DNA of 64,000 nucleotides, from sequence record PQ330092; one strand, written 5' to 3'. Positions 14,525-63,187 of this stretch are shown piece after piece. This stretch comes from Escherichia phage JP4. The position numbers and the translations under genes were made by a program. The notes beneath the pieces were generated by a model. The model had not been told where the DNA came from, did no database searches, and saw nothing but the letters and a program-made list of their open reading frames with translations. Each line of letters begins with the position of its first letter. Within the stretch, counting starts at the first letter, position 1.

Positions 14525-14608
14525 ATGACTTTAGAGATTGTCTTTGGTATTGTTAGCTTAGTCGTCTGTGTGGGTTGGTTTGGGTATCTGATGATTTTTA
14601 GTGATTAA
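14525..14608 (+). CDS. 27-aa hydrophobic peptide (absent from ORF track)
   Basis: ATG 6 nt after aagga SD; MTLEIVFGIVSLVVCVGWFGYLMIFSD, one predicted helix. Confidence 0.35.
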   Translation: MTLEIVFGIVSLVVCVGWFGYLMIFSD

Positions 14609-14611
14609 TAC

Positions 14612-14639
14612 TTGACATAAGATATCAGTACTGTATAAT
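14612..14639 (+). promoter_or_regulatory. sigma70-type promoter
   Basis: TTGACA-16-TATAAT. Confidence 0.6.
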
Positions 14640-14684
14640 GTTTATATCAAACGAAATCCACTTTAACAAATGATAGGAAATATT

Positions 14685-14963
14685 ATGTCTTTTTCTAAAG
14701 AAGAACGTGACCTTATTAAAAAAGCAATTTGGTTTTATGCTAATGAAGGGAAGTGCGATGAAGAAAAAGCACGTGAACTGTGTAATATCCTTGAGAAGAA
14801 ACAAGAACTGAAAGTGTATCGTATCCGTGATTTGGATGAAGGGGATCGTATTGTCCTAGCTGAAACAAAAGAAGAAGCAGAACAAATCTTCACTGATAAA
14901 AACGAAAATCCACATTGGATGGAAGAAGTCTGTGATGTTAAAAAAGGTACTTATATCGATTGA
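14685..14963 (+). CDS. hypothetical protein
   Basis: In-frame ATG 14685 after aggaaa SD preferred over track start 14670. Confidence 0.5.
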   Translation: MSFSKEERDLIKKAIWFYANEGKCDEEKARELCNILEKKQELKVYRIRDLDEGDRIVLAETKEEAEQIFTDKNENPHWMEEVCDVKKGTYID

Positions 14964-15001
14964 CAGTACTGAATAATAGCAGTATTATGTTTTATATAAA
15001 A

Positions 15002-15053
15002 GGGAATGCAGTGAAAGGAAAGACAGCATAATCGTACTCGTCACTGCGTTCCC
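15002..15053 (+). promoter_or_regulatory. long imperfect inverted repeat (RNA stem-loop candidate)
   Basis: 13-nt arms gggaatgcagtga / tcactgcgttccc around a ~26-nt loop, then gcccttttaaa; between genes 14963 and 15083. Confidence 0.35.
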
Positions 15054-15082
15054 GCCCTTTTAAATTAAATGAGGAATTAACT

Positions 15083-15391
15083 ATGTTTCAAACTAACACT
15101 CAAGGTTTTGTAATCATCGATTTGAATCAAAACAGCGGTCATTGGATGAAACCTACTGACGCATGTATGCAGTTTGATTTTTTAGGTTACAGGATTAGTG
15201 TAAGTACTGGTGCTTCTGTACTGAGAGGTGGTTGTATCGTTGAACATCTGGTAACTGATCCAGAAGGTCGTGAGTATGAAATCGCAGGTTCAGTACAAGA
15301 TGCCATTATGTTTGTATGTCAGCGTGAAATGAATGGTTCGAATTCAAATGCACTGACTCATGCTCTTTCTCAAGAAGTGGAGGTTCGTTAA
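15083..15391 (+). CDS. hypothetical protein
   Basis: 102-aa ORF with gaggaa SD. Confidence 0.5.
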   Translation: MFQTNTQGFVIIDLNQNSGHWMKPTDACMQFDFLGYRISVSTGASVLRGGCIVEHLVTDPEGREYEIAGSVQDAIMFVCQREMNGSNSNALTHALSQEVEVR

Positions 15392-15636
15392 TGAAATACA
15401 TTGTAGCAGTACTCGTTGCATTTCTACTCACTGCATGTGATGCTTCTACCAAAGAACGTACAAGTGATTTTGTTCTACCTGCTGAATTAAAAGAAGCAGG
15501 GTGTAAGATTTATCGTATGCAACAAGATGGTGCTGGTGCGACTTTATACACTGTGTACTGTCCTAATGCAAATACAAGTACTGGATACACTAGCGGTAAA
15601 ACACGAATCAACACTTCCGTAATTCATGGAGAATAA
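15391..15636 (+). CDS. putative lipoprotein
   Basis: Signal peptide ending in lipobox LTAC (MKYIVAVLVAFLLTAC). Confidence 0.55.
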   Translation: MKYIVAVLVAFLLTACDASTKERTSDFVLPAELKEAGCKIYRMQQDGAGATLYTVYCPNANTSTGYTSGKTRINTSVIHGE

Positions 15637-15638
15637 CA

Positions 15639-16007
15639 ATGAGCCTTGATACAACACGTGCAGCAGATTTATTAACTCGTCTGAATGATGAAGAATATCT
15701 TGCTGAGATAAAGTACAAGCTTGACAAACTTGTTCGAAGTGCTGAAGTAATTGAAGTTGAAGGTCACTTACCGATGGATCAATACCATAGGTTCAAGGAA
15801 GATATGGTTTATTATCCTAATGAAATTTGGATTGAGTGGCAACATTGGACTAACAAAACTCTTCGCATTGAAGGGTATTGTGTGAAGTATGAAAGTTCAC
15901 CTGGTGATGTTACAAAAACTCTATCAATTTGGTGTACAAAAACAAATGAACTCGTTGAGGTGAATTTGAATTATATGAATGGATTCCGTTGGGGTGATGT
16001 TAAATGA
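15639..16007 (+). CDS. hypothetical protein
   Basis: 122-aa ORF. Confidence 0.55.
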   Translation: MSLDTTRAADLLTRLNDEEYLAEIKYKLDKLVRSAEVIEVEGHLPMDQYHRFKEDMVYYPNEIWIEWQHWTNKTLRIEGYCVKYESSPGDVTKTLSIWCTKTNELVEVNLNYMNGFRWGDVK

Positions 16008-16279
16008 TTAAAAAACTCTTGACTGGAATCATTGTGTGCAGTACAATGTTTCTTACAGCATGTAATGATGACGGCAGGTTTAGTGCAAAAGACTTAGTTC
16101 GTCAGGATTGTACATTCACAGGTAAGTCTTTTATTAACGAGTATGAAATATGTACACAATCAGGTCGTATCTGTGGTGGTTGGGAAAAACGTCAGGAGCG
16201 ATTGTATGTATATGAATGCCCTGGACATCACAACAAAGTATTAAGCACACACAAACTTGTTTATGATAAGGTTGAATAA
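16004..16279 (+). CDS. putative lipoprotein, Cys-rich
   Basis: Signal peptide with lipobox LTAC (MIKKLLTGIIVCSTMFLTAC); several further Cys. Confidence 0.55.
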   Translation: MIKKLLTGIIVCSTMFLTACNDDGRFSAKDLVRQDCTFTGKSFINEYEICTQSGRICGGWEKRQERLYVYECPGHHNKVLSTHKLVYDKVE

Positions 16280-16494
16280 TGACTACCAATGAAATGATGC
16301 AGGTTATTTGGGATAAAGGTTGTGATATTAAAATCACTAGTACTGATGTTCGTGTATTCAAAACTGAATATATGGAGTACTTGGACCTTGATACTTATAA
16401 TAATATTGTATCAATTGAACACAAAGGTGCAGTACTGGAAACCATTGACGTAGTACTCAAGAAAGCTACCGACCTATTAGGAGTGGCAGTGTGA
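16279..16494 (+). CDS. hypothetical protein
   Basis: 71-aa ORF. Confidence 0.5.
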   Translation: MTTNEMMQVIWDKGCDIKITSTDVRVFKTEYMEYLDLDTYNNIVSIEHKGAVLETIDVVLKKATDLLGVAV

Positions 16495-61572: not shown

Positions 61573-61579
61573 AAAGTAC

Positions 61580-61607
61580 TTGCAAACTATGTTTAAAGGC
61601 GTATAAT
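61580..61607 (+). promoter_or_regulatory. early-type promoter with conserved 5' stem-loop
   Basis: TTGCAA-16-TATAAT, then hairpin gcgggaa-ctc-ttcccgc at 61622-61638. Confidence 0.6.
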
Positions 61608-61659
61608 GTTTTACATCGAGAGCGGGAACTCTTCCCGCCTATAACCTGGAGTAATAAAA

Positions 61660-61890
61660 ATGACTAATATGTATATGACTGAAGTTAAAACCGTAAAAGA
61701 TACTACCACGAATAAAACTACTTACTTACAGCGGATCTGTGGTGTATGGCAACGTATCAGCAAATCAAAGTACTTTAAATTAACATCATATGCCAATCGT
61801 TCGGATTCATTCAGTACTGAAATAAAAGGTAATAAAGTACACCAATACGGCACTTATTATTATTATAGCCTGGACGCGATTGTAGTATAA
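61660..61890 (+). CDS. hypothetical protein
   Basis: 76-aa ORF with ggag SD. Confidence 0.55.
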   Translation: MTNMYMTEVKTVKDTTTNKTTYLQRICGVWQRISKSKYFKLTSYANRSDSFSTEIKGNKVHQYGTYYYYSLDAIVV

Positions 61891-62140
61891 GTAGTTTACA
61901 AATCTTTACAATTGCCAGTATTGACTTATTTTGTCAGTACTGGCATAATGTATTCATTGGCAGATAAGCCGTAGCCCATAGGGTGCGGAAGTGTATCTAT
62001 AGAAAAAGTAGTTTAGTACAGTTACAATTGTGCACCCGGTGGGTTAGCTGTTGTCATGGGGTATATTATACCAGTACTGGATAGTGCTGTCAATACTTTT
62101 TTTTTACTATTCAGTACTGAAAACTATTTTTAAAAAGTAC

Positions 62141-62168
62141 TTGCAAACTATGTTTAAAGGCGTATAAT
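62141..62168 (+). promoter_or_regulatory. early-type promoter with no ORF before the next promoter
   Basis: TTGCAA-16-TATAAT plus imperfect acggggaa..ttcccgt stem-loop; next promoter 91 nt downstream. Confidence 0.5.
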
Positions 62169-62258
62169 GTTTTACATCAGGACGGGGAACGAAATAAGTA
62201 ACTTCCCGTTAAGTAGCCCAGGAGTAAGGCACACGAAAAACTCCCCTGATAAAATAGT

Positions 62259-62286
62259 TTGACAAATGTTTTTAAAAGCGTATAAT
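62259..62286 (+). promoter_or_regulatory. sigma70-type promoter
   Basis: TTGACA-16-TATAAT, 33 nt upstream of ATG 62319. Confidence 0.6.
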
Positions 62287-62318
62287 ACTTACATCAACTA
62301 CTGAATGAGGGTTACAAA

Positions 62319-62930
62319 ATGAAAACTATCACTACTACTACTTTCGTTATGGATTTTTCTGAATTGAACGCAGAACAAAAAACGTCAGCTATCGAACTGG
62401 TTCGGGAACGTGAAAAAAACTCAAACGACAATTATTTTTCTGAAAGTGAAATTGAATACTATAAAGAAACAGTACTACCGGAATATGGCATTAATGACGC
62501 TGAAATACAATTCAGTGGTTTTTGGTCCCAGGGTGACGGTGCATCAATCAGTACTGACCACGTTGACGCAGTGAAGTTTTTACGCAAGGTAAGAGCATTA
62601 ACTAAGTATCGCTCAATCCGTCACCTGCTGAATGAAGATGATTTGGCGATGAGTGTAAAGCGTTCGCACTCCCACTACTCGCATGAGAATACTGTAAGCG
62701 GGTACATTGAATCGGCTTACACTGATTTAACCGCAAAACAAGAAACGTTAGTTAATGAGCTTGAGGAATTACTCACTGAAACTATTCGTGAATTGTCACG
62801 CAAGTTGTACCGTGATTTAGAGAATGCATATGAGGATCAATTCACTACTGAAAACATTACGGCACTGATTGAGGGTAACGAGTATCAATTCAATGTTATT
62901 GATGGCGTAGTGGAATCAATCGAATATTAA
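62319..62930 (+). CDS. hypothetical acidic protein
   Basis: 203-aa ORF with gaggg SD. Confidence 0.6.
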   Translation: MKTITTTTFVMDFSELNAEQKTSAIELVREREKNSNDNYFSESEIEYYKETVLPEYGINDAEIQFSGFWSQGDGASISTDHVDAVKFLRKVRALTKYRSIRHLLNEDDLAMSVKRSHSHYSHENTVSGYIESAYTDLTAKQETLVNELEELLTETIRELSRKLYRDLENAYEDQFTTENITALIEGNEYQFNVIDGVVESIEY

Positions 62931-62942
62931 TTTAAAAAGTAC

Positions 62943-62970
62943 TTGCAAACTAAGTTTAAAAGCGTATAAT
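62943..62970 (+). promoter_or_regulatory. early-type promoter with conserved 5' stem-loop
   Basis: TTGCAA-16-TATAAT, then hairpin agcgggaa-tag-ttcccgct at 62984-63002. Confidence 0.6.
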
Positions 62971-63022
62971 ACTTTATATCGAGAGCGGGAATAGTTCCCG
63001 CTACTAATGAGGAATACTACAA

Positions 63023-63187
63023 ATGAATACTTTTACCTTCGCTCAATTGAACGCCCTGGATGTATTGTCTGATGCTTTGCGGGATGCAACTGAAAGCGGT
63101 TTATTTGACAATGTTGACATTCACCCTGATGTAATTAATAATTTTTGTGATGCTATCGCAGAAGTACTGGAAGATCTAAAAAAATAA
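63023..63187 (+). CDS. hypothetical 54-aa acidic protein (absent from ORF track)
   Basis: MNTFTFAQLNALDVLSDALRDATESGLFDN..; ATG after gagga SD, directly behind promoter and stem-loop. Confidence 0.5.
   Translation: MNTFTFAQLNALDVLSDALRDATESGLFDNVDIHPDVINNFCDAIAEVLEDLKK

Follow-up and report, generated by a model that had tools for sequence, protein, structure and literature searches.

The window analysed here, a stretch of 64,000 nucleotides (nt) from Escherichia phage JP4 (PQ330092), contains eight open reading frames (ORFs) of fewer than 60 amino acids (aa) which are very probably ordinary small genes of an Asteriusvirus jumbo coliphage lying under a 60-aa length threshold. Seven of them are real genes, and for the eighth, the 27-aa candidate c27, the chances are about even. 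Megablast assigns the window to the Asteriusvirus jumbo coliphages (PBECO4/121Q/phAPEC6 group), and the closest match is vB_EcoM_E9.1 (E9.1), with 99.5% identity at 14000-30500 and 98.2% at 53600-64000. The encoded proteins are of three kinds: predicted single-pass membrane micro-proteins (c48, c37 and the candidate c27), two predicted soluble helical proteins (c58 and c54) and three members of a tandem array of predicted four-helix proteins (c59a, c59b and c59c). Their existence, conservation, selection, family membership and predicted topology and fold are shown below. Seven of the genes were already known and are recorded as hypothetical proteins by GenBank and PHROGs, and the observation that they were missing is an artefact of the length threshold.

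Eight short reading frames in the gaps between larger genes

All eight ORFs which the initial annotation had put forward as plausible genes are present in the letters, with the coordinates, lengths and start codons given for each below. Every one of them is preceded by a Shine-Dalgarno (SD) sequence, as had been claimed: a 4-6 nt match to TAAGGAGGT ends 3-11 nt 5' of the start codon. Their absence from the ORF track is likewise confirmed, and the sole reason for it is the 60-aa cutoff at which the default list starts. The statement that they fill otherwise empty gaps is correct with regard to plausible same-strand genes but not with regard to the track itself, which lists antisense or TTG-started ORFs across some of the gaps (29831-30034, 29998-30246 and 55058-55258 on the minus strand and 16591-16848 on the plus strand).

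The plus strand was scanned for ORFs of 20-59 aa which have an SD motif and hardly overlap larger ones. This gave the eight together with four poor extras, located at 14960 (TTG start), 39267 (in overlap with a gene of the minus strand), 59456 and 62167. Since nothing but these four was added, the list of eight is essentially complete. Dinucleotide shuffles produce 0.43 SD-bearing short ORFs per kb; the whole plus strand holds 23 such ORFs versus 21 in the shuffles and is thus not enriched. Eight of the 23 fall into intergenic gaps that together measure 1,641 nt, versus ~0.7 expected there (Poisson P ~8e-7), and it is this placement in gaps which is the non-random feature of the eight ORFs.

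All but c27 are annotated coding sequences (CDSs) in E9.1 (CDS0572, 0593, 0606, 0646, 0648, 0651 and 0676) and hypothetical proteins in close relatives. The counterparts in 121Q are gp179 for c48, gp200 for c37, gp213 for c58 and gp255 for c59b, and the annotations in G17 and fEgEco12 are concordant with those of E9.1 and 121Q. The hypothetical proteins of 121Q and E9.1 lie at the same positions as the seven and are 90-100% identical to them. c59a, c59c and c54 are without a 121Q orthologue because the slots differ between strains, whereas c27 is annotated in neither 121Q nor E9.1. The PHROGs 38271, 35037 and 38182 were built from 121Q/E9.1 genes. In Pfam-A none of the eight proteins has a match at the gathering threshold.

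Syntenic 50-kb stretches from 121Q, G17, UE-S1, fEgEco12, JNE01 and K64-1 were compared with the window at the protein and the codon level. The ratio of nonsynonymous to synonymous change (pN/pS) is well below 1 solely in the proposed frame for c48, c58, c59a and c59b; otherwise support comes from divergent protein homologues (c37 and c54) and from family membership (c59a-c). Judged by conservation in related phages, the proposal of eight plausible genes therefore stands clearly for seven, and c27 stays just plausible. In codon usage c37, c54 and, marginally, c48 are distinct from stop-free non-coding windows. A null distribution taken from off-frame windows of real genes made all eight significant and was dropped, because such windows contain stop codons.

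As the membrane criterion served one hydrophobic stretch of ~19 residues with a Kyte-Doolittle mean above 1.6. c27, c48 and c37 each contain such a stretch, with means over 19 residues of 2.28, 2.84 and 2.75, respectively, and are for this reason predicted to be single-pass membrane proteins; the values of c58 and c54 are lower.

The predicted membrane proteins c48 and c37

c48 (16491-16637, plus strand, 48 aa) starts with GTG and overlaps the stop codon of the upstream gene in a GTGA motif, through which it is predicted to be translationally coupled to that gene. The protein is composed of a charged N-terminal part of 23 aa and a predicted C-terminal transmembrane anchor. It matches phrog_38271 over its full length (E = 2e-38, residues 1-48 on profile positions 1-48) and is annotated in E9.1, 121Q, G17 and fEgEco12. 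In the proposed frame the comparisons with G17 and UE-S1 give pN/pS values of 0.10 and 0.28, as opposed to more than 0.8 in the other frames, and 7 of 11 and 17 of 29 differences, respectively, are found at third codon positions. The GTG start, the SD sequence and the GTGA overlap are kept in relatives. Furthermore, all database homologues are 48 aa long (79-94% identity), and among them the head MNNKEWE[DE]YRKKCREFDKELTGT is almost invariant and the helix more variable. JNE01 has a different small hydrophobic ORF at the position of c48.

c37 (24002-24115, plus strand, 37 aa) is located between two virion-protein genes and consists of a predicted N-terminal transmembrane helix followed by a polar tail. 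It is identical to gp200 of 121Q and, judged by position, probably corresponds to gp036c of phAPEC6. The match to phrog_35037 again covers the complete protein (E = 2.2e-29, residues 1-37 on 1-37). c37 is at least 97% identical in 19 records, nearly all of which annotate it, and because of this near invariance codon-substitution tests are uninformative. The protein g552 of fEgEco12, also 37 aa long and of the same layout, is 59% identical to c37 although the DNA cannot be aligned, which argues for selection on the peptide. The codon usage of c37 is better than that of 99.5% of the stop-free non-coding windows.

Both sides of c37 are marked by copies of one hairpin cassette. Upstream, a hairpin with a T-run (23939-23967, plus strand) contains TTGACT, and the promoter scan found a promoter-like site consisting of this TTGACT and a TATCAT 18 nt downstream (23943-23972, plus strand); at the corresponding position the G17 annotation has a terminator. 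Directly 3' of c37, 6 nt past its stop codon, lies the terminator-like hairpin AAGGTTGAC-TTCG-GTCAGCCTT (24122-24143, plus strand). The same cassette of hairpin and T-run occurs also at 20695-20718; it is reused after several genes and conserved in all relatives, including Klebsiella phage K64-1. The TTGACT of the cassette precedes a -10-like hexamer by 17-18 nt, and in this way a terminator-like element overlaps with a promoter-like one.

The family-C array

The family-C array (53737-58528, plus strand) is composed of 21 tandem paralogues of ~60 aa and stands immediately ahead of the terminal repeat. A consensus-matching promoter-like site, TTGACA-17-TACTAT (53683-53711, plus strand), lies ahead of the first member. 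The array is interrupted by a 219-aa gene (55770-56429) which is unrelated to family C; the possibility that it represents a fused member was rejected, as the family hidden Markov model (HMM) does not recognise it.

That three of the short ORFs, each of 59 aa, belong to this array was claimed initially and is borne out by an HMM built from the 18 longer members, with the three left out: c59a (55196-55375, plus strand) is recovered with E = 1.3e-10, c59c (56606-56785, plus strand) with E = 2.2e-10 and c59b (55580-55759, plus strand) with E = 6.2e-6. The family HMM sets the 21 members apart from everything else in the window. Their lengths range from 59 to 75 aa and are usually 60-63 aa. Tyr5 (xEFY/YY) is invariant and Leu56 (xLxLI) at least 90% conserved in the family, and both residues are kept in c59a-c. 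In addition, the three genes have the strand and spacing of the array, with 1-9 nt to their neighbours. Overlaps or spacings of 1-10 nt between the genes of the array point to a single operon.

c59a is annotated in E9.1, fEgEco12 and SP27, and four of the five differences from fEgEco12 are synonymous (pN/pS 0.06). An AlphaFold2 (AF2) model of c59a made with the family alignment contains four helices with a predicted local distance difference test (pLDDT) score of 91.6, and this model has no structural match to a known fold. c59b has orthologues in five phages with 56-95% identity, and its pN/pS is 0.25-0.56 in frame and above 0.77 off frame. c59c matches phrog_11711 (E = 4.5e-6) and has orthologues with 98% identity in UE-S1 and fEgEco12.

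The copy number of family C ranges from 14 to 21 in five other Asteriusvirus genomes, and the content of the array differs between strains as well; the analysed stretch of K64-1 has no copy. Among 5.8 billion proteins searched, 36 clusters were found, and all those with a source name belong to the Asteriusvirus group.

The predicted soluble helical proteins c58 and c54

c58 (29920-30096, plus strand, 58 aa) is a basic protein with 11 K/R residues and is identical to gp213 of 121Q. It matches phrog_38182 from end to end (E = 5.2e-45, residues 1-58 on 1-58). In comparison to UE-S1 pN/pS is 0.14, and 17 of 26 differences are at third positions (P = 8e-4). All nine database clusters but one mis-called entry have a length of 58 aa. 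The AF2 model shows three helices (pLDDT 83). A promoter-like site of perfect consensus (29279-29306) lies ahead of the operon which contains c58. The idea of a helix-turn-helix (HTH) protein found no support: the Pfam match to Clr5 (E = 0.035) lies below the cutoff, and Foldseek gave no significant match in the PDB, the best one (IHF/TraY-like fragments) being at E = 3.9. The substitutions also speak against coding by the antisense ORFs over c58, as their wobble positions are the plus-strand positions 2 and 1, where few substitutions are found.

c54 (63023-63187, plus strand, 54 aa) is acidic (11 D/E, 3 K/R) and contains the motifs ATESGLFD and HPDVINNFCDA. It is annotated in E9.1, fEgEco12, CRJP21, EC.P1 and slurp01, and is identical in the closest relatives. 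Homologues with 45-63% identity exist in Phapecoctavirus nepoznato, EJP2, PBECO4, K64-1, a Seunavirus and KP13-26, and the genera represented include Phapecoctavirus, Seunavirus and Alcyoneusvirus. A HMMER scan of 1.84 billion representatives yielded 43 clusters at E <= 1e-3, mostly stand-alone proteins of 45-66 aa. The clusters have ATxSGLFD and HPDxINxFCD in common, and both motifs recur in homologues from five phage genera as well as from metagenomic clusters. Whereas c54 is a typical stand-alone protein of ~50-60 aa, some relatives embed the domain in proteins of 107-459 aa. No Pfam or PHROG model covers the c54 domain, and the longer domain-bearing proteins gave no Pfam match either. By its shared motifs c54 is a member of a wider unnamed domain family (SGLFD...HPDxINxFCD). 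Its codon usage beats that of 99.9% of the stop-free non-coding windows. Salmonella phage KE23 contains in frame 2 of one locus (PP856722.1 12022-12644, reverse complement) an open c54 homologue of 55 aa, MDIYKTQVLKLLSIALQLATSSGIFD...INDFCDAVAELEKKENV, most of which has no annotated CDS in that frame.

A promoter-like site TTGCAA-16-TATAAT is located 5' of c54 (62943-62970, plus strand) and a second copy 3' of it (63198-63225, plus strand). These cassettes persist even in relatives where another gene stands between them. The presumed 5' leader of c54 contains the stem-loop GAGCGGGAA-TAG-TTCCCGCT (62982-63005, plus strand), which is present in the centroid structure (z = -1.8 for a 100-nt stretch).

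The first base of the E9.1 record aligns at position 58792 of the window, and thus the window enters here, with 58792-64000, the long direct terminal repeat of ~21 kb. In fEgEco12 a terminal repeat of 20,993 bp was confirmed by restriction digests (PMC13070987). Because they lie inside the repeat, c54 and the other genes from 58792 on are present twice per virion genome; c54 is found twice in E9.1, fEgEco12 and CRJP21. Across the repeat boundary extends a region of ~1.9 kb without credible ORF (58530-60465), which contains many short repeats, among them degenerate GGCTAGAC/GGATGGCT units with a period of 8 nt (59538-59697) and a 40-nt sequence that is present in identical form at both 60316 and 60369. 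Rfam gave no match in 58530-60465. The region is possibly related to packaging or replication.

The candidate c27 and alternative explanations

c27 (14525-14608, plus strand, 27 aa) reads MTLEIVFGIVSLVVCVGWFGYLMIFSD and is a candidate single-pass membrane micro-protein. Its ATG start is preceded by the SD sequence TAAGGA, which shares the top score among the eight. As a gene it is plausible and unproven. The contrary view, only slightly below even chances, takes c27 as an ORF that arose by chance in the spacer which separates the preceding gene, with its end at 14515, from a promoter-like site of perfect consensus directly 3' of c27 (TTGACA-16-TATAAT, 14612-14639, plus strand), which is ~92% conserved even in K64-1. 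The conservation of c27 would then be that of the whole region, and its hydrophobic codons T-rich sequence read in frame. A full-length match to c27 is found in 28 phage records at 78-100% identity, and in none of them is a feature annotated under it. Compared with UE-S1 the substitutions are distributed 4/2/4 across the codon positions, and an excess at third positions is absent versus G17 as well. Codon usage is unremarkable, as 25% of the stop-free non-coding windows match or beat that of c27. An allele with one additional nucleotide, found in four independent genomes (among them 121Q, G17 and phAPEC6), retains an ORF of 26 aa but has a different sequence, over 16 residues, in place of the conserved C-terminal half. 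Moreover, the variability of c27 (16 of 84 columns) is close to that of its flanks of 45 nt (8 of 45 columns upstream).

These points, which weigh against c27 as a gene, are opposed by others. In the 154-nt gap 0.07 SD-bearing ORFs would be expected by chance, and 0.004 at the SD strength of c27. Start, stop and length are retained in all 28 genomes down to 78% identity. Of the 18 nucleotide changes across nine distinct alleles 7 are synonymous and 11 nonsynonymous, compared with an expected synonymous share of 21% (P = 0.06, a marginal signal); the replacements are all hydrophobic-for-hydrophobic, and CVGWFGYLMIF is almost invariant. Furthermore, JNE01 has at a different locus (10483-10569) an unannotated, SD-bearing paralogue of 28 aa, MYLYIAISSIVFVVIVTGWFGYLMLSTK, which shares GWFGYLM with c27 and occupies the slot held by c37 in the window. 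RNA structure as the cause of the conservation was rejected (z = -0.01). For c59a-c, an origin as decaying truncated family-C copies, that is pseudogenes falling just below 60 aa for this reason, is highly unlikely. c59a and c59b do stand near the bottom of the family HMM scores (lowest but two), with a match beginning at model position 4, and have the poorest codon usage among the eight; c59a and c59c are without orthologue in 121Q/G17, the best match of c59c there reaching 34%. However, 59 aa is inside the length range of the family, and start, SD sequence and stop are kept together with Tyr5 and Leu56. Intact orthologues exist (98% identity for c59a, 56-95% for c59b) at a pN/pS of 0.06-0.56, and the model of c59a is confident. 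Still less probable is the explanation of c37 as a regulatory leader peptide without function of its own, whose translation would control read-through of the 3' hairpin into the virion gene. It would fit the arrangement of a short ORF between two terminator-like hairpins followed by a structural gene. The hairpin, however, is a generic cassette, which stands after other genes (20695) and, in other phages, in slots with unrelated genes, and UE-S1 and JNE01 are without c37 yet retain the downstream gene. The conserved peptide of fEgEco12 and the strongly gene-like codon usage also speak for a functional protein.

Further observations count against the interpretation of the other ORFs as ordinary genes. 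The UE-S1 record has a 1-nt deletion in c48, although an intact 48-aa protein of the UE-S1 allele type is known elsewhere (P0049). The codon usage of c58 and c59a-c is not separable from that of stop-free non-coding windows. In the virion proteome of phAPEC6 both neighbours of c37 are listed and c37 is not, which is uninformative for a hydrophobic peptide of 4 kDa. No transcriptome, promoter map or small-protein data were found in the Asteriusvirus papers, and no fold or family match assigns a function to any of the eight.

Other features of the window

Genes are on the plus strand up to ~39 kb, followed by a minus-strand array of RCC1-like genes and then by plus-strand genes again. The RCC1-like array (39382-53652, minus strand) contains ~12 paralogues of ~390 aa, after each of which the G17 annotation places a terminator; several RCC1-like homologues are associated with phAPEC6 virions. 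The two adjoining arrays, RCC1-like and family C, resemble each other in their head-to-tail paralogues and in a copy number that differs between strains. However, the RCC1-like proteins of ~390 aa belong by annotation to a known fold family, whereas the ~60-aa helical proteins of family C are without known relatives. Eight abutting or overlapping ORFs of ~104-141 aa at 35421-38201 (plus strand) resemble a further tandem family, and at the matching position K64-1 has several genes of similar size labelled 'membrane protein'. Neither tRNAs nor Rfam family matches were found in the window.

The palindrome CAGTACTG is present in 52 copies in the window versus 0.8 expected from shuffles. Twelve copies are located within the ORF-free 58723-60382, often as TTCAGTACTGA. 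Copies at 14626, 53695 and 59171 adjoin the -10 element of strong promoter-like sites, and others are intragenic, c37 being among the genes concerned. The motif may be bound or modified by a phage factor; nothing relevant to it was found in the literature.

At 61983-62133 the counterpart of 121Q gp270 (61 aa) is split by a frameshift into pieces of 33 and 25 aa, and strong promoter-like sites are crowded there on both strands. For both reasons gp270 may not be a genuine gene.

Proposed roles and significance

Small single-pass membrane proteins are known from large lytic phages, for example the superinfection-exclusion and lysis-timing proteins of T4. c48, c37 and c27 are similar to these T4-type proteins in size, in the single hydrophobic helix and in the short charged tail, and in the corresponding region of relatives there are genes with the labels membrane protein, lipoprotein or superinfection exclusion. 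However, a Pfam search revealed no sequence similarity to named families. In a check for holin and antiholin partners no lysis gene was found annotated beside c27, c37 or c48 in E9.1, 121Q, G17 and fEgEco12, where most neighbours are unnamed.

As to expression, timing, localisation and function, we infer the following. By analogy with small phage membrane proteins, c48, c37 and, if real, c27 would integrate into the inner membrane of the host and influence a process at this membrane. The charged head of c48 would be cytoplasmic, with the C-terminus as anchor, and c27, if real, would be nearly all helix. c54 would probably be an early host-directed binder, transcribed from its own sigma-70-like promoter in the terminal repeat, and the stem-loop may have a role in its leader. 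c58, small, basic and helical, might bind nucleic acid or protein, and family C might be a diversifying battery of small binding proteins. A bolder proposal, which we regard as unlikely, is that the array encodes rapidly diversifying inhibitors, each directed against a different variant of a host defence or host factor, with c59a-c as working members, and, separately, that c27 founds a family of membrane peptides of 27-28 aa which has so far escaped annotation and is marked by GWFGYLM.

For annotation practice the result is a point of quality control: a floor of 60 aa loses about one in twenty genes in such phages, including 3 of the 21 members of one tandem family. The remaining value lies in the unannotated candidate for a 27-aa membrane peptide and in the wider unnamed domain family to which c54 belongs. 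In addition, the family-C array, with a confident helical fold that has no match and a copy number varying between strains, is for these reasons a reasonable target for screens for anti-defence or host-takeover functions.

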